DNA from: Planctomycetota bacterium
GTDB taxonomy: Bacteria; Planctomycetota; UBA8108; SXIK01
NCBI GenBank assembly: GCA_965223845.1
Contig: CBDCXR010000004.1
Location: 3,008,001 to 3,072,000 of the forward strand
DNA: 64,000 nucleotides
Direction of reading: 5' to 3'
This document shows, in pieces, positions 774-7,991 of the stretch (its first letter is position 1; the number at the start of each line of letters is the position of its first letter). Made by a program: the position numbers and the translations under genes. The notes below the pieces were generated by a model that saw nothing but the letters and a program-made list of their open reading frames with translations, was not told where the DNA came from and made no database searches.

Positions 774-968
774 GGGAAGCCCTTCGTCCTTGGATTGCGC
801 GATCGCCTTCTCGTCTTGGTCGTGGAGATTGTCACCCCGTCAGGCGATGATTGCCACTCGTGTCGCGAGGCGGCTCGGCGGAACCGGCCCTCCGGCCGCA
901 TCGGACATCCGGCGAACCGCGCCGCCCCGCGCACCGAGCAATCGCGATTCTCTGCGAGAGGACCTTCC

Positions 969-2636
969 ATGCACCGTTCCATCCTGATCTGTACGACCGG
1001 GCTTCTGATCAGCCTCGCATCGGTTTCGAGTGGCGCGGCGGAGCCAGAGACGAACGACAATCCGCACCTCGTCGTCTGGGAGGGAGAGGACGGCCCGGGC
1101 CGCGGGAAGCACGTCGTTCTCATCGCCGGCGATCACGAGTACCGCGGCGAAGAGACGCTCCCCGCGCTCGCACGCATTCTCGCAAAACACTACGGATTCA
1201 AGACGAGTTGCTTCATCACGACGGATCCGAAGACGGGATTCATCCGCCCCGGAAGCTCGCATCTTTCGGGTCTCGAGACCCTCCGCACGGCCGACCTCCT
1301 CGTCGTGTTCCTCCGCTTTCAGGACTTCAAGGACGAGGAGATGCAGCACATCGTCGACTACCTGGACGCCGGGAAGCCGGTGCTGGGCTTACGGACGTCG
1401 ACGCACGCGTTCAAGATCGGAAAGGGAAAGAAGTTCCACAAGTACTCCGACAACTACCGCGGTGAGGACTACTTCGGCGGGTTCGGGGAGCAAGTACTCG
1501 GCGAGCACTGGGTCGGTCACTACGGTCGAAACCACCGGCAGAGCTCGCGGCTCATTCTCGAGAAGGATCAGCTCGCGCACCCGGTTCTTCGCGGCGTGAA
1601 GGACGTCCACGCTCAGTGCGGCGGCTACAACGCGCATCCGATCGAAGGGAGCACGATCCTCGCGCGCGGGCAGATCCTGAATGGGATGACCGCGGATTCG
1701 GAACCCGATCCAACAAAGGAGATCCTCCCGGTGGCGTGGATCCGAACGCACCGCGGAGCGAAGTCCGGCACGGAAGGTCGCGTGTTCACGACCACGCACG
1801 GAGCCTCCGAAGACATCTTGAACGACGGTTTCCGCCGAATGCTGGTGAACGGCGCGCTTTGGTGCGTCGGCCTCGAGAATGAAATCCGCGCCGACGGCCC
1901 GATCGGCTTTGTCGGTCCGTACCACCCGGTGACGTTTAGCTTCGGCGGATACCGAAAGGGAATTCGCCCGAAGGACCTCGAAGGTTGGGACACGCCGATC
2001 CTCGGTGCGAGCGACCGGACGCATCTTTTTATTCTCTCCGGACAATCCAACATGGCCGGACTCGACCCGTCGGTCTCCTTCACCCCCACCGTCGCGCGAG
2101 CGTTCGCCGGCGACGAGGTCATCGTCGTCAAGGACGCGCAGGGAGGCCAACCCATCCGCCGCTGGTGGAAAGAATGGAAACCCGCGGCCGGAACGGAGCC
2201 GAAAGCGACCGGCGATCTCTACGACCGCCTTCTCGCGAAGGTGAAGTCGAGCGTTGGGGATCGAAAGCCGACCACGATCTCGTTCGTCTGGATGCAAGGC
2301 GAGCGCGACGCGCGCGAGAAGCACGGCGACGTCTACCGCGCGAGCCTCGAAGGCCTCGTCGCGCAGCTCCGCGGGGACCTCGGCCGGGAGGACGTTCAGG
2401 TCGTCATCGGTCGGCTGAGCGACTTCGACAACGAGAACGAGCGCTACCCGCACTGGACGCGCGTCCGCGAGGCACAAACAGCGTTCGCCGAGACCAACCC
2501 GCGCTACGGCTGGATCGACACCGACGATCTCAACGGACCGAAGGACGAGCTCCACTACACGAAGAAGGGATACCGAACGCTCGGACGCCGCTTCGCGCAA
2601 AAGGTCGTCGAACTCGTCGAGAAGAACCGAGAGTGA
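969..2636 (+). CDS. Secreted ThuA-like domain + SGNH sialate O-acetylesterase (SASA/CE6-like) fusion
   Basis: ATG 969 follows GAGGA and starts a signal peptide. N-half has VVLIAGDHEYRGEE...GRVFTTTHG; C-half has FILSGQSNM, WMQGERD and DELHY. Confidence 0.8.
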   Translation: MHRSILICTTGLLISLASVSSGAAEPETNDNPHLVVWEGEDGPGRGKHVVLIAGDHEYRGEETLPALARILAKHYGFKTSCFITTDPKTGFIRPGSSHLSGLETLRTADLLVVFLRFQDFKDEEMQHIVDYLDAGKPVLGLRTSTHAFKIGKGKKFHKYSDNYRGEDYFGGFGEQVLGEHWVGHYGRNHRQSSRLILEKDQLAHPVLRGVKDVHAQCGGYNAHPIEGSTILARGQILNGMTADSEPDPTKEILPVAWIRTHRGAKSGTEGRVFTTTHGASEDILNDGFRRMLVNGALWCVGLENEIRADGPIGFVGPYHPVTFSFGGYRKGIRPKDLEGWDTPILGASDRTHLFILSGQSNMAGLDPSVSFTPTVARAFAGDEVIVVKDAQGGQPIRRWWKEWKPAAGTEPKATGDLYDRLLAKVKSSVGDRKPTTISFVWMQGERDAREKHGDVYRASLEGLVAQLRGDLGREDVQVVIGRLSDFDNENERYPHWTRVREAQTAFAETNPRYGWIDTDDLNGPKDELHYTKKGYRTLGRRFAQKVVELVEKNRE

Positions 2637-5600
2637 ACTCGAGCGTTTCCCTCGCGATCGCGTTCGGCACCGCCTTCGCCGTCGGGTGCGACCGGCGCGA
2701 GCCCGCGCACCAAGTGACGACACCCGCTCCGGTCGACGCCGCCCGCGAAGAGATCGCCGAGCCGGGGAACGAGCTCGTCGCGCTCACGGTCGTCTCGACG
2801 CCCGGATCGCGAACGAGGAGCGATGCGGACGCTTCTCAAGCGAAGACCCCACTCACAATCGCCAGCCGCGGCTCCTCTTCGCGGACAGCGATCGATGCGC
2901 AGCTCGAACACCTCCTTCCGGGCGACGACTGGTCGAGCGAGAGGGAGAGCCAGCGAATCGCCGAGCTCATCCGCAGTCTGATCGCCGCGGAGCAGACCGC
3001 GGCCGCGCTGGCGGATTTCGTCCCGCCGGACTTTCGTACGGAAGCTCTCCGCCCGCGCCCGCTCGATCCCATCTACGAGCGAAACGGTCTCGTCGTGCGG
3101 CGGTTTCGACGAGACGGCGAGGCCGCGAGTGCGCCGCTCGGCGGCGTCTCCGGGCTCGCCCGAGCGCTCGCTTCGCTGCGCGCAGCATTCCCCCGCGAGA
3201 CCAGTCGCTTCGACATTCACGTCACGGAATTCCGCTTTCTTTCCGGGGGCCGCCAGTCGTTCGAGGCGAAGGTCGACATCGACCTCGCACACGAGTCGCG
3301 GGAAGGTGTGAGCCGCGAAGCGACCACGACGTGGCGTTGTACCTGGAGCGCACGCGACGACGATCCGCCGCGCCTCCGCGAGATCCGCGTCGAATCCTAC
3401 GAGGAAACCTCGCTCGAACGCTCCGGCAGTGCCGAGGGGTCCTTTTTCGTCGATGCGACGACCGCCGCGGTCGGAGCTCTCCCAGAGTTCGCCGCCCAGC
3501 AGCGGCGAGGAATCGAATCGTGGGCCGAGCGGATCACGCGACTCGGCGATCTTCACCTCACCGGGCACCACGGGATCGCCGTCGGTGACGTCGATGGCGA
3601 CGGTCGCGACGACCTCTACGTTTGCGACGGCGGCAGCCTCCCCAATCGTCTCTATCGCCAACTTCCGAATGGCGCCGCCGAAGACATCTCCGCTCGCGCG
3701 GGCGTCGACTTCCTCGAGGATTCGCGCAGCGCACTTCTCGTCGATCTCGACGGCGATGCCGATCAGGATCTCGTCCTCGCGACCATCGCGATGATCGTTT
3801 TCGCCGAGAACGACGGCTCCGGTCGCTTCACCGTTCGCGGCGGGCATCCGGGCGCGCCGTATCCCTATTCACTAAGCGCGGCGGATTTCGATCTCGACGG
3901 TGACCTCGATGTTTTCGTCTGCGTCTACGGAGCCGCGGACGAAGGGTCGGGTGCGCGGGGATTCGAGGCGAGCGCGCCCGTGCCGTTTCACGACGCGCGG
4001 AACGGCGGGCGCAACGTTCTCCTCGAGAACCGCGCGGCGTTCGCGTTCGTCGACGCGACGGACGCGGTCGGGCTCGGACGCGAGAACTCGCGCTGGTCGC
4101 TCGCCGCCGCGTGGGAAGACGTCGACTCGGACGGAGATCTCGACCTCTACATCGCGAACGATTTCGGGCCGAACCAGCTCTTCCGCAACGACGCCGCCGA
4201 AGGCGCTCGGAAGACGCGACGCTTCACCGAAATCGCCGCCGCCGCGGGCGTCGAGGACTTCGGTGCCGGAATGTCCGTCGCTTGGGGCGATGCGAACGCA
4301 GACGGGAGAGCGGATCTCTACGTCGGCAACATGTTCTCGTCGGCCGGCCTCCGCGTCGGCGCGCAAGCGAACTTTGTGCGAAATCGCGACGCGGAGACCA
4401 CCGCGCAAACCCAGCGCATGGCGCGCGGCAACTCGCTCTTCGTCCGAAGGAATAACGGGCTCGCCTTCGAGGACACCAGCCTCGCCGCGGGCGTGACGCA
4501 CGGAGGCTGGGCCTGGAGCTCCGGCTTCGCCGACATCAACAACGACGGCTGGGAAGACCTCGTCGTCGCGAATGGGTTTCTCTCGAGCACGCGGCCCGGC
4601 GACCTCTGAAGCTTCTTCTGGCGACAGGTCGTGTCGCCAAGTCCGATGGCCGCCGGCGATGCGTCGCGCGCGCGCGACTACGGCGCCGCCTGGGCTGCGC
4701 TCATGCAGCTCGCACGCGAGGGTCACTCGTGGAGCGGCCACGAGCGGAATCAGTGTTTTCTCAATCTCGGAGGCGGTCGATTCGCGCGGATCTCGGCCGT
4801 GAGCGGACTCGACGCTCGATCCGACGGCCGAGCGCTCGCGTTCGTCGACTGGGACCGCGACGGCGACGTCGACATCTGGTTTCGAGACCGCACGGCGCCG
4901 CGGCTTCGCTTGCTGCTGAATCAGCACGTTTCCGCGCGGTCCGCCGAGGATCGGAGCTTCGTATCTCTCCGGCTCGAAGGGACGAAGGCGAATCGCGACG
5001 CGATCGGCGCTTCCGCCGAGGTCGTCCTCTCGGAGGCGGCAGAACCCCCGAGGCGATTCGTTCGTGCGGTGCGGGCCGGCGATCTCTATCTGTCTCAGTC
5101 GAGCAAGTGGCTTCACTTCGGACTCGGGTCGAAAGCGAAGATCCGCGAGGTCGTCGTCCGCTGGCCGGGCGGGGCGAGCGAGACGTTCGCCGGCGTCGAG
5201 CCGGGGAACCGATACCGACTCCGCGAAGGCACGGGAGCAGCCGAGCTCGCTCGTACAGACTCCGTTCGTCTTCCGCCCAGTAGGCCGGTCGGCATTCCTC
5301 TCGCGAGATCAGGGGGTGCGTCGATCCTTCTCTCGCGCCGCATCCCGTTCCCGCTTGTCAACTACCGCATGCCGGACGGACAGCCGCGCGCACTGGGCGA
5401 GAGCCCACGCGAACGGCTTCTCCTCATCTGGTCGAGCACGTGCGCTCACTGCGTCCGTGAGCTCCGCTCCCTCGCGGCGCAAGCGGCACGAGTTCGAGCG
5501 ACCGGCCTCGATGTTCTCGCGCTCTCCGTCGACCGAAGCCTCGAGAGCCCGGGCGAGGACGCGAGCGCGCGCGACGAACGAGTCATCGCGAACGTCGAGT

Positions 5601-6265
5601 TCCCGTTCGCATGGGGCCGATTGGACTCCGACGCGACCGAGCGCATCGCGACCTATCAGCGCGCGCTCTTCGATCGCACTCCCACATTCGCGGTCCCGCT
5701 CGCGTTCCTCCTCGACCGGGAAGGGAACGCGGTCGCCCTCTATCGGGGCAACATCGGAATCGAGCGCGTTCTCCGAGACGTCGAGCGCACGCGAGACGCG
5801 ACGAACGAAGAGCTGCATCGACTCGCGCCGCCCTTTCCGGGACGGTGGTTCACGCGTGCCGTCGGGGATGCCGCGATGGCGGAGTTCATGGCGCGCCACT
5901 TCGAACGCCGATCGCTCGAAGACGCGCTGCCGTACCTCCACCTCGCCGCGGAGCGTGCGAGCGAACCGCGAAACCTCGCGCTCCGGCGCGAGCTCGGCGA
6001 AAAGCACCATCTTCTCGCGCGTCGCGCGCGAGAAGCGCGCGAACCGGAGCGGGCGGCGTTTCACTTCGAAGCGGCGCTCGGCTCCTCTCCACCGAGCGCG
6101 GAGCTCCTCACGGAATTCGGCTCGCTCCTCGGCTCGTACGGCAATTTGGACGCTGCCGAAAAACAGTTTCGGGCGGCGCTCGAGCTCGATCCCGGTTTCG
6201 GCCCCGCGGCCGAGGCATTGCGACTCGTGAATCGCCTGCGGAACGAATCGGCAGAGTCCGAGTGA
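2633..6265 (+). CDS. FG-GAP/CRTAC1-like repeat + ASPIC/UnbV + redoxin (CxxC) + TPR lipoprotein with one in-frame TGA at 4607-4609 (candidate selenocysteine)
   Basis: GTG 2633 overlaps the upstream stop (GTGA) and is followed by lipobox AVGC and many DxDGDG repeats. ORFs ending 4609 and starting 4631 are in the same frame and read GDL*SFFWRQVVSPSP...SWSGHERN. Downstream are NRDAIGA, YLSQSSKWLHFGLG, VRWPGG, CAHC (5441-5452) and a C-terminal TPR. If not recoded, it is two ORFs (2633-4609 and about 4631-6265). Confidence 0.75.
4607..4641 (+). promoter_or_regulatory. Bacterial SECIS-like hairpin after in-frame UGA
   Basis: TGA-AGCTTCTTC-TGGCGACA(4619-4626)-GGTCG-TGTCGCCA(4632-4639): a perfect 8-bp stem with a G-starting loop 17 nt after the UGA. 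Confidence 0.65.
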
Positions 6266-6494: not shown

Positions 6495-7991
6495 CTACTT
6501 CACGCGCCGGCGTCGACCCGGCTTCGGCGGTCCGTAGGTCTCGAGCAGGACTCGATCGACGACCGCGCGATCCGTGCGGTGACGGAACGCTTTCAGCATG
6601 GGGTCGCCGGTCCGCTCCATCCATGCGTCGAGCTTCGCGCGTAGCGCGTCGAGTGTCTTCGCGTGCTCGGGTCGGTCGACGAGATTGACGAGACTGTCGG
6701 GATCCGCGCGCAGGTCGTACAGTTCTTCCGGGACTCGATAGCGAAAGAGCTGAATGCGAGCCGCGATCGCCGCGTTCCCGGCGTCCGCTGCGCGCTGCAT
6801 CGCCTTCATGGACTTGCCCTCGTTGTTATTTCGATACCGGTGCCGCCCATCGCTGAAGGGATTGTAGATGTACCCGAATCGCGCGCTCTGAACGCAGCGC
6901 ATGGGGACGCGATCGCCGCCCGCCTTCTTGTCGATCTGCGTAAACACGACGTCGCGTCCGGACTGAGCTTCGCCGCGGAGAAGTGGAACCATCGAGCGGC
7001 CGTCGAGGCCACTCGGACCGGCGATACCGGTCGCCTCGAGAAACGTCGGGAAGAAATCCACACCGGACACGAACGCGTCTCGGTTGACGGTGCCCGCCCG
7101 AGCGACACCGGGCCAGCGAACGAGGAGCGGCGTCCGCGTGCTGTGAAACCAGGCATTACACTTCGCAAACGGAACGGCAATTCCGTTGTCCGAGAGAAAA
7201 ACGACGAGCGTGCGAGCCGCGGCTCCCGATTCTTCCAGAGCATCGAGAACGCGGCCGAATGTGTCGTCGAGCCGCCTCGTCGAGTTGAGATACTGACTCA
7301 GCTCGGCGCGCACTCCGGGAAGATCCGGAAGAAACCCCGGCACCGTCACTTCGTCCGGAGAATACGTTCGTGACGGCATCGCCGCGCCTCTGAGGAGCTT
7401 CGCGGGGTCGCAGTAGGGACGATGCGGATCGTGCGAGTTCACCATGAAATAGAACGGTTTCCCGCGTTCCTTCGCGAGCGCGAAGAATTTGCGGCTCCGC
7501 TCGTAGTAGATCTCGGGGTTCCTCCCGTTGCCGAGATCGCCACGATCGAATTCGTAGTCCCAGCGCATCGAATTCTTCGGCGTCGAGTGCGCTACCTTCC
7601 CGAGGATCCCCGCGACGTATCCCGCTTTCTGGAACGTCGTGACGACGTCGGGAACGTCCTCGCGCGCCTTCATGAATCCCATCGCACCCGAGCGGTGGCT
7701 GTAGAGGCCCGTCGCAATCACCGCGCGGCTCGGAGCGCAGATCGCAGCGTTCACATGCGCTCGCTCGAAGCGCATCGACTCTCCAGCGAAGCGATCGAGG
7801 CGGGGAGTGACACCCTTCGGTCTTCCTCCGAACACTCCGAGCGACTCGGCGTGGAGGTCGTCGGCAGTGAAAAGGAGAATATTGAGTCGCGTCGGCTCCG
7901 TCTGGGCCTCTGCGCTCGGCCGCCCAAGAGTCGAAGCCGATCCAATCGCGAGACCCGCCGCTAAGAGGAGAACCGTCCGCGAGACGTTCAC
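6495..7991 (-). CDS. Formylglycine-dependent sulfatase
   Basis: Signal peptide, NILLFTADD, CAPSRAVIATG, HDPHRP, FLSDNG and EELYDL. Confidence 0.92.
   Translation of the reverse strand: MNVSRTVLLLAAGLAIGSASTLGRPSAEAQTEPTRLNILLFTADDLHAESLGVFGGRPKGVTPRLDRFAGESMRFERAHVNAAICAPSRAVIATGLYSHRSGAMGFMKAREDVPDVVTTFQKAGYVAGILGKVAHSTPKNSMRWDYEFDRGDLGNGRNPEIYYERSRKFFALAKERGKPFYFMVNSHDPHRPYCDPAKLLRGAAMPSRTYSPDEVTVPGFLPDLPGVRAELSQYLNSTRRLDDTFGRVLDALEESGAAARTLVVFLSDNGIAVPFAKCNAWFHSTRTPLLVRWPGVARAGTVNRDAFVSGVDFFPTFLEATGIAGPSGLDGRSMVPLLRGEAQSGRDVVFTQIDKKAGGDRVPMRCVQSARFGYIYNPFSDGRHRYRNNNEGKSMKAMQRAADAGNAAIAARIQLFRYRVPEELYDLRADPDSLVNLVDRPEHAKTLDALRAKLDAWMERTGDPMLKAFRHRTDRAVVDRVLLETYGPPKPGRRRRVK

Follow-up and report, generated by a model that had tools for sequence, protein, structure and literature searches.

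An in-frame TGA followed by a SECIS-type hairpin points to a family of large, probably exported selenoproteins with a CRTAC1-like propeller

Does the in-frame TGA at positions 4607-4609 of this planctomycete DNA end a gene, or does it encode selenocysteine (Sec, U) in the middle of a longer one? The window, by which we mean the whole 64,000-nucleotide stretch analyzed (Planctomycetota bacterium, assembly GCA_965223845.1, contig CBDCXR010000004.1, positions 3,008,001 to 3,072,000), contains two open reading frames (ORFs) that share one frame on the forward strand and are separated by this single TGA, the first ending at 4609 and the next running from 4631 to 6265. Default gene calling of the region yields two ORFs. 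When the TGA is read through as codon 659, a single gene of 1210 codons results at 2633-6265 (+), in agreement with a sequence-only reading of the locus that had put its length at about 1210 codons. The junction then reads ...STRPGDL-U-SFFWRQVVSPSP...SWSGHERN or, with a longer N-terminal flank, ...NGFLSSTRPGDL-U-SFFWRQVVSPSP.... The start codon is a GTG at 2633, which shares a 4-nt overlap (GTGA) with the stop of the upstream gene, and the final stop is a TGA at 6263-6265. On the evidence of homologous sequences set out below, the TGA at 4607-4609 very probably encodes Sec and the window gene is a selenoprotein gene, a reading to which we assign a probability of about 0.9; sequence analysis by itself could hardly make the assignment firmer. 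The account of the locus as one 1210-codon selenoprotein gene is, taken as a whole, its best explanation, and our confidence in it is only a shade lower.

Decoding of the in-frame TGA

The 300-residue peptide spanning the junction was compared in six frames with 41 related genomes and found matches in 39 of them. Each of the best 78 matches (E <= 4e-28) has a single TGA as its sole stop; 415 weaker matches lie beyond these. At least 22 of the 41 genomes hold a TGA-bearing gene of the family, and in all 22 well-matched loci (L020-L041) the TGA aligns to U659 within the motif D-[LT]-U-S-[FV]-[FY]-W-R-[QH]-V-V. One additional locus, L042, carries U in a weak and differently placed match (63 bits) and was left out of the count, and a gap occupies the Sec column in L043, in L044 and in a second alignment of L039. 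The window's own genome (7.9 Mb, 65% G+C) encodes eight paralogues with a TGA at the U659 column, and its more distant CRTAC1-type paralogues show a gap there.

A scan of one genome per GTDB species returned 583 relatives, from which the best 80 loci (L063-L142) were examined. The TGA stands at the Sec column in 77 of these 80, a share that is biased upward because the loci were chosen as most like a Sec protein; the remaining three carry sense codons for Tyr (L081), Ser (L097) and Ala (L102). The set of junction-matching database proteins (the P-set) cannot contain full-length Sec forms, and neither it nor the 80 loci gives the true share of such forms. Judged by record titles, the 80 loci include Verrucomicrobiota (Roseibacillus, Akkermansiaceae, Limisphaerales), Planctomycetota (Phycisphaerae, Pirellulaceae, Mariniblastus), Acidobacteriota (Holophagales, Thermoanaerobaculia, Polarisedimenticolia) and one Flavobacteriaceae metagenome-assembled genome (MAG) of the Bacteroidota; the named loci nearest to the window gene are from Verrucomicrobiota. 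Altogether, 106 homologous genes with a TGA at this column were examined, including the eight paralogues of the window genome. Conservation of the TGA, which the sequence-only reading had named as the support to look for, is therefore borne out both by the best 78 matches and by the named loci.

Contigs assembled from four sequencing runs (X1-X4, which belong to one study, are probably from the source sample and hence are not independent) show the TGA and no other letter, with no variant letter and no indel at 4500-4720.

The source genome holds the Sec machinery that the earlier reading had called for. A tRNA-Sec scores 68 bits, above the Rfam cut-off, and has the anticodon TCA according to ARAGORN; selA (536 bits), selB (353 bits) and selD (308 bits) are all above curated cut-offs and none has an internal stop. 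Among the 41 related genomes, selA was found in 40, without an internal TGA, and the one genome in which it was missed (G024) is 84% complete. No selA was found in the 1.7-Mb Flavobacteriaceae MAG that carries L117. Because selA, selB and selD lack internal stops, TGA is not a general sense codon in this genome, and frames bounded by TAA and TAG alone span several genes and gather 2-18 TGAs. A changed code with TGA as sense was excluded on the grounds that TGA terminates the window gene as well as the gene upstream of it and that the sel genes are TGA-free. As a separate observation, the selD match (L017, G000:C4:5317241-5318161) lies in an 809-amino-acid open frame without an internal stop, far beyond the length of a plain SelD, and may encode a fusion protein.

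A hairpin downstream of the TGA

The stem TGGCGACA (4619-4626) / TGTCGCCA (4632-4639) forms 8 bp around the loop GGTCG (4627-4631), beginning 9 nt 3' of the TGA and leaving 17 nt between UGA and loop. The stem, loop and spacing are as the sequence-only reading had described them, and the whole element spans 4619-4639, within the codons for W-R-Q-V-V-S. Its conserved core comprises six base pairs, 4620-4625 with 4633-4638. The published model of the bacterial Sec insertion sequence (SECIS) element, as given in section 5 and the Fig. 2A legend of a 2026 review (PMC13188914), describes an apical loop of 3-9 nt on a stem of 4-16 bp, a G within the first two loop positions, 16-37 nt from UGA to loop, and a minimum free energy (MFE) of -7.5 kcal/mol or lower. 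With its GGUCG loop, 8-bp stem, 17-nt spacing and MFE of -15 kcal/mol, the window hairpin agrees with that model on all four points. Dinucleotide shuffles of the hairpin RNA gave a mean MFE of -9.65 kcal/mol (standard deviation 2.48). An Rfam scan of 4500-4750 found no family matching the hairpin, its one hit being a chance raiA-hairpin at E 8.7.

The pairing is conserved and covaries, as had been anticipated. When 27 loci are aligned without gaps (A2), none departs from standard pairing at any of the six inner pairs, even as their letters change: pair 24-34 is AU in 17 loci, GU in 5, CG in 2, GC in 2 and UG in 1, and pair 26-32 is AU in 26 and GC in 1. The outermost pair, 20-38, is kept in just 6 of the 27. 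The covariation score of this set is 0.184 as compared with 0.093 +/- 0.013 for shuffled alignments, 0 of 500 of which reach that value, and it drops to at most 0.065 once the 3' partners are slid out of place. In the wider set, 105 of the 106 Sec loci share one hairpin register; 88 of them have six standard pairs out of six, and most of the other 17 have five. Pair 4 is here AU 44, GU 36, GC 14, CG 3, UG 2 and non-standard 6, and pair 6 is AU 96, GC 7 and GU 2. The loop reads GGUCG in 81 of the 105 loci and has G at its second position in every one.

Since the hairpin overlaps the W-R-Q-V-V-S codons, conservation of the peptide could mimic that of an RNA structure. Three lines of evidence from the aligned sequences argue against peptide conservation as the whole cause. 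Compensatory residue changes are one: in the GC variants of pair 6, the Gln of WRQ becomes Arg always together with a change of Val to Ala, Ser or Thr two codons later (codons 6-8 after the TGA; L024, L082, L099, L111, L122, L125 and L141), an amino-acid covariation that is explained by the keeping of RNA pair 6. Synonymous sites also appear constrained, given that CGC serves for the hairpin Arg in 4 of 105 loci as against 43% of Arg codons in long ORFs of the window genome, and that the paired Val is GTG in 100 of 105 loci although the genome prefers GTC (55%) over GTG (25%). Lastly, all four sense-codon homologues for which DNA was at hand (L051 Cys, L081 Tyr, L097 Ser, L102 Ala) have mismatched stems and no comparable hairpin, and they still keep W-R-[QRH], mostly followed by V-V. 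In L041 and L061, another peptide follows U and other stems form (CCGGUGC/GCACCGG and CCGUGC/GCACGG), still with the loops GGUC and GGUU about 20 nt from the UGA. The hairpin of L117 has a shorter loop.

The nearly invariant block of TGA and SECIS, about 30 nt long, could serve as a simple key for metagenome searches of the family. The run contigs break at this block (4604-4638), where their summed depth rises from ~5-30 to 120-700, and their loose ends read like paralogue flanks. With nucleotide conservation this high, the ~30-nt block acts as a repeat in assembly graphs, and it may fragment MAG assemblies at such genes.

Protein fold and the residue at the Sec column

The layout of the read-through protein is as follows (position in the window, strand, feature).

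2633-6265, +, whole gene, as the read-through frame; sense-codon homologues are continuous over the junction
2633-2689, +, putative lipoprotein signal peptide, residues 1-19 (...LAIAFGTAFAVG-C19), by sequence pattern alone
2885-3427, +, N-terminal alpha+beta domain, residues ~85-265, helices followed by four long strands, by AlphaFold2 secondary structure
3530-4942, +, FG-GAP beta-propeller with DxDxDG-type loops, CRTAC1-like, by Pfam (FG-GAP_3, FG-GAP) and Foldseek
4607-4609, +, UGA probably read as Sec (U659), by the column shared with 106 loci and the genome's Sec machinery
4607-4717, +, two-helix insert among propeller strands, residues 659-695, by DSSP of the model
4619-4639, +, bacterial SECIS hairpin, by pairing, conservation, covariation and published criteria
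4754-4756, +, Cys708 (...SGHERNQ-C...), candidate Sec partner, by the enrichment of Cys707/708 in Sec rows
5000-5215, +, UnbV_ASPIC domain, residues 790-861, by Pfam (E 1.3e-14)
5318-5854, +, ResA/TlpA-like thioredoxin-fold domain, residues ~896-1074, by Foldseek
5441-5461, +, putative active-site motif C937-A-H-C940-V-R-E943 (CxxCxxE), by sequence and alignment
6029-6220, +, C-terminal TPR-like region, weak here and strong in paralogues, by Pfam

Homologues with a sense codon at the junction are single proteins of 1000-1400 residues that run straight through it. Together with the predicted structure, they strongly support the view that the window gene encodes one multidomain protein. The sequence-only reading had named FG-GAP, ASPIC-UnbV, redoxin and TPR parts. 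The first two stand on Pfam matches above cut-offs (FG-GAP_3 E 6e-36, FG-GAP E 4e-16, UnbV_ASPIC E 1e-14) and a thioredoxin fold is given by the model; the AhpC-TSA (E 0.006) and TPR (E 1.7e-4) matches of the window protein stayed below cut-offs, and strong TPR repeats are present in 6 of the 7 other paralogues of its genome. For the N-terminal alpha+beta domain, at 2885-3427 ahead of the 3530-4942 propeller region, no Pfam family matched. The N-terminus begins with a hydrophobic stretch followed by Cys19, paralogues have N-termini with the lipobox-like LVGGC, FGSAC and LASC, and we infer from this pattern an exported and probably lipid-anchored selenoprotein of 1210 residues.

An AlphaFold2 model was built for residues 85-1090 from an 80-sequence alignment (A1) with C in the Sec position; model numbers equal residue numbers minus 84. 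The model has a mean pLDDT of 92.5 and a pTM of 0.95. In Foldseek comparisons, the best solved match of the propeller is murine CRTAC1 (9etn_A, E 3.7e-23, TMt 0.73), and the C-terminal domain superposes on ResA, StoA and TlpA with TMt 0.66-0.81 (ResA 2f9s and 1st9, 0.80-0.81; TlpA 1jfu and 4txo, 0.66; E 4e-8 to 1e-7). These matches of the model confirm a predicted thioredoxin-like fold for the C-terminal domain. The CAHC motif at 5441-5452, noted before from the letters, does indeed fall at residues 937-940, and C937 and C940 (model 853 and 856) are placed at the start of helix 854-865, as in thioredoxins. The Sec is model residue 575, the first of helix 575-583 (U-SFFWRQVV), directly after strand 570-573, and this helix forms with helix 593-611 an insert between propeller strands. 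An earlier suggestion that Sec sits in a propeller loop therefore holds as far as the propeller protein goes and needs amending in detail, the model having Sec head a helix of the insert and not a plain loop. For the family, the strongly supported architecture is an N-terminal alpha+beta domain, a CRTAC1-like FG-GAP propeller, UnbV_ASPIC, a ResA/TlpA-like CxxCxxE domain and usually TPR repeats.

In an effort to place the Sec column in its family context, we aligned 252 rows spanning residues 600-760 (E <= 1e-20). The column holds U in 106 rows, E in 40, D in 25, S in 21, A in 17, N in 10, M in 6, Q in 5, C in 4, a gap in 12 and six single residues. Expectation had been Cys or Ser in other homologues. 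Cys does occur (P0005, P0011, P0016 and L051), in 4 of 134 non-Sec rows, and most homologues carry E, D, S, A or N. On a FastTree tree inferred with the Sec column masked, the distribution of Sec against non-Sec requires at least 14 changes. Sec-rich clades number 43 rows (40 Sec), 26 (26), 20 (18), 5 and 3 rows, and they mix Verrucomicrobiota with Planctomycetota. The Ser homologues P0004, P0017, P0018 and P0025 are nested inside Sec clades. A single base separates UGA from UCA, so that Ser could have taken the place of Sec recently in these homologues. A small subgroup (L050, L052 and L053, from G001, G016 and G014) lacks five residues including the Sec position (GFVSSGQ-----QTYWEDL) and keeps the S-[LW]-SGHE motif after the insert.

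The presence of Sec goes along with that of the CxxC. The columns that best separate Sec rows from other rows are C937 (0.92 in Sec rows, 0.13 in others), C940 (0.92, 0.19), E943 (0.91, 0.13) and S701 (0.99, 0.22). The motif is covered by 194 of 240 rows; of these, 97 of 101 with Sec, 12 of 91 others and 1 of 2 with Cys have an intact CxxC, and the Glu at +3 is present in 96 of 101, 16 of 91 and 1 of 2, respectively. All eight paralogues of the window genome carry CxxC. Cys at column 707 or 708 is found in 86 of 106 Sec rows, 24 of 130 other rows and 3 of 4 Cys rows. As related rows are not independent, phylogenetically independent pairs were also used. Nine such pairs for Sec and CxxC gave 5.5 changing the same way, 0 opposite and 3.5 unchanged (median p 0.03); ten pairs for Sec and Cys707/708 gave 4.5 the same, 0.2 opposite and 5.3 unchanged.

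Four Sec loci (L066, L067, L070 and L023) have degenerate thioredoxin motifs (SxxS, CxxS, SxxN and SxxC), and L066 and L070 also have hairpin mismatches; these loci may be decaying copies or a different subtype.

Possible roles of the site and relation to known systems

The sequence evidence strongly supports decoding of the UGA at 4607-4609 by the standard bacterial route, in which the hairpin at 4619-4639 recruits SelB with Sec-tRNA(Sec). The mechanism that we propose for the protein goes further. Placed at the N-terminus of a helix in the propeller insert, where the helix dipole would favour a reactive selenolate, the Sec would act as a substrate-facing redox centre, possibly paired with Cys708. 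It would cycle through a Se-S bond with Cys708 and/or C937, be reduced by the fused CxxCxxE domain, and leave that domain to be reduced in turn by a CcdA/DsbD-type membrane protein. The outcome would be a self-contained periplasmic selenium-dependent reductase or peroxidase. The sequence-only reading had likewise spoken of a self-contained selenium redox module; the co-occurrence of Sec with CxxC (97 of 101 rows against 12 of 91) speaks for it, a relay would also fit the superposition of the fused domain on the reductases ResA and TlpA and the place of Sec at the head of a helix, and contact between the two centres is something we infer. One DsbD_TM/CcdA gene is present in the window genome, a family that is common (10 of 14 control genomes). 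That sole match (G000:C4:2831533-2832165) lies in a 788-amino-acid open frame, longer than a plain CcdA.

A redox relay between Sec and the CxxC domain has in our view an even chance of being right. Somewhat less probable, and put forward tentatively, is the full proposal of a first beta-propeller selenoenzyme and a very large, missed exported family (Verrucomicrobiota, Planctomycetota, Acidobacteriota; up to 8 copies per genome) in which Sec, Cys708 and CxxCxxE would form a three-centre relay carrying membrane electrons to an external substrate, be it a peroxide, a disulfide or another oxidized compound. If a relay of this kind operates, these phyla may spend most of their selenium on the family rather than on formate dehydrogenase or SelD, and D, E or S homologues without CxxC would be its non-redox descendants.

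Several observations weigh against the selenoprotein assignment or against a catalytic role for the Sec. The hairpin by itself is just mildly unusual (z -2.16, with 7 of 200 shuffles folding as well), its weight coming from conservation, and at least one non-standard pair occurs in 17 of 105 Sec loci when the register is fixed. The co-occurrence of TGA forms and selA had no power as a test, selA being present also in three genomes with sense-codon genes. On independent pairs, the association of Sec with Cys707/708 falls short of significance (median p 0.125), and that of Sec with CxxC has exceptions on both sides, the motif being kept in 12 of 91 non-Sec rows and missing in 4 of 101 Sec rows. 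That Cys so rarely takes the place of Sec sets this family apart from most selenoprotein families and makes an ancestral catalytic residue less plausible; given the helix-start residues in homologues, the site could be structural. Finally, the neighbouring genes, a ThuA+SASA esterase and a sulfatase, provide no functional link and no substrate lead.

Four other readings were weighed against a Sec-based redox protein. A private nonsense mutation or pseudogene, a sequencing error or two adjacent genes would account for the two ORFs of default gene calling and for a hairpin that is mildly better than shuffles; this was rejected on TGA conservation, the TGA being at one column in 106 loci from several phyla with the peptide conserved on both sides. 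The run contigs without variant letters, the sense-codon homologues that are single ORFs and the pTM of 0.95 for the joined protein speak the same way, and we regard this reading as very improbable. Equally improbable is the insertion of an ordinary amino acid (Trp, Gly or Cys) at the TGA through a changed code or efficient near-cognate suppression. Any code with TGA as a sense codon would leave the frame open, but this reading must contend with the terminal TGAs of the window gene and its upstream neighbour, the lack of internal TGAs in selA, selB and selD here and in selA of 40 relatives, the 2-18 TGAs gathered by TAA/TAG-bounded frames that cross several genes, and the tie of the TGA to a SECIS-type hairpin that sense-codon homologues lack. 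Slightly less remote, and still quite improbable, is a selenium-dependent switch in which the 658-residue N-terminal product has its own role and the full-length protein is made only with selenium. Every Sec-UGA competes with release factor 2, and public N-terminal halves (P0139, P0141 and P0148) end at the column; these halves, however, are gene-caller output and not observed proteins, the truncated product would stop inside the propeller, before its last blade and ASPIC, and be unlikely to fold, and the C-terminal half is conserved in frame in all Sec loci.

The main rival grants that the protein is a genuine selenoprotein and makes its Sec a metal- or ligand-binding or a structural residue of the propeller, with the thioredoxin-like domain serving other periplasmic clients. 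The residues found at the column in homologues (E 40, D 25, S 21, N 10) fit a ligand or helix-capping site, E, D, S, A and N being favoured at the first position of helices, and the propeller is rich in DxDxDG loops. That 12 of 91 non-Sec rows keep CxxC further indicates that the domain can work without Sec. On the other hand, CxxC and the Glu at +3 track Sec, the independent pairs for CxxC never change in opposite directions, and Cys707/708 is enriched in Sec rows (86 of 106 as compared with 24 of 130). We consider this rival unlikely, if well ahead of the other three.

Within known biology, the window gene resembles bacterial genes with a SECIS inside the ORF, of the E. coli formate dehydrogenase type, in having a UGA followed by a coding-region stem-loop, and its 5-nt loop starting with GG, 17-nt spacing and MFE of -15 kcal/mol are like the consensus bacterial SECIS in the cited sections of PMC13188914. 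As with other bacterial selenoprotein genes, tRNA-Sec, selA, selB and selD accompany it in the genome. Unlike catalogued selenoproteins, the family has no UxxC or CxxU around Sec, rarely has Cys at the column, and reaches eight paralogues in one genome. Table 1 of the same review counts 119 prokaryotic selenoprotein families and subfamilies, and among these 119 there is no FG-GAP, ASPIC, CRTAC1 or propeller entry. Term searches of this review and of the deep-Sep paper (PMC12013277) gave no hit. In NCBIfam release 20 there is no model for the window protein, which has two sub-threshold matches there, PilW and TlpA. Literature searches combining selenoproteins with FG-GAP, ASPIC, CRTAC1, Planctomycetes or Verrucomicrobia turned up no description of the family among the papers listed, as did one on new bacterial selenoprotein families in metagenomes, and the S9 Table of PMC4807772, on candidate selenoproteins of two Planctomycetes, may list members. 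Measured against Table 1 and NCBIfam, this is a new family within a known kind, the bacterial selenoproteins, and its placement outside the classic families by the sequence-only reading holds to the same extent. What sets it apart is how large the protein is, how many copies one genome can carry, where the Sec lies and which residues stand in for it in homologues.

The protein is like CRTAC1/ASPIC-UnbV FG-GAP proteins in its FG-GAP propeller, its UnbV_ASPIC domain and its CRTAC1-like fold (9etn_A). It is unlike them in its Sec-bearing two-helix insert, where classic CRTAC1-type paralogues of the same genome have a gap, and in adding an N-terminal alpha+beta domain, a fused thioredoxin-like domain and TPR repeats. 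Sense-codon homologues go by the names of this group in databases ('CRTAC1 family', 'FG-GAP-like repeat-containing' or 'VCBS repeat-containing'). The C-terminal domain superposes on ResA, TlpA, CcmG and StoA (TMt 0.66-0.81) and keeps W..CxxC..E; the E80Q ResA structure 2h1b is among the Foldseek matches, and the Glu three residues after the second Cys is at what we take to be the position of ResA Glu80. In contrast to ResA and TlpA, which are small and membrane-anchored, the window domain is fused behind a 900-residue propeller protein, and its candidate client would be the protein's own Sec site. A parallel in layout is Neisseria PilB (Trx-MsrA-MsrB), in which a periplasmic thioredoxin-like domain, fed by DsbD, is fused to the redox enzyme it recycles. 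The catalytic fold differs from that of PilB, and the catalytic residue would be a Sec on a propeller insert.

Public annotation divides these genes, as the sequence-only reading had foreseen. The junction was scored against 1.84 billion representative proteins, with 18,980 matches at E <= 1e-3 and 732 at E <= 1e-30. The best 150 include N-terminal fragments ending exactly at the column (P0139, P0141, P0148) and C-terminal fragments starting just after it, among them P0003, the window's own C-terminal half filed as a 539-amino-acid protein; as such fragments end at or start after the Sec column, gene callers evidently split the Sec forms. Homologues among 94 matches are named 'tetratricopeptide repeat protein', 'FG-GAP-like repeat-containing protein', 'CRTAC1 family protein', 'VCBS repeat-containing protein' or 'TadD/peroxiredoxin', and none 'selenoprotein'. 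Family genes are thus stored publicly as two unrelated proteins, an 'FG-GAP repeat protein' and a 'tetratricopeptide repeat protein/peroxiredoxin', and because they are filed in two halves, the selenoproteomes of Verrucomicrobiota, Planctomycetota and Acidobacteriota would be undercounted; the window genome alone would gain eight selenoproteins. The site would place Sec outside a thioredoxin-like or metal-cofactor setting, on a propeller insert where homologues have Asp, Glu or Ser, and the natural series of Sec, Cys, Ser and Asp/Glu at one site offers a way to ask what selenium adds. Database names for bacterial CRTAC1/ASPIC proteins give no function, and a redox centre would be the first functional lead.

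The genes on either side of the selenoprotein gene are a ThuA + SASA (sialic-acid-specific acetylesterase) fusion upstream, at 795-2636 (+), and a sulfatase downstream, at 6495-7991 (-). An esterase and a sulfatase of these kinds give the gene a polysaccharide-degradation setting.

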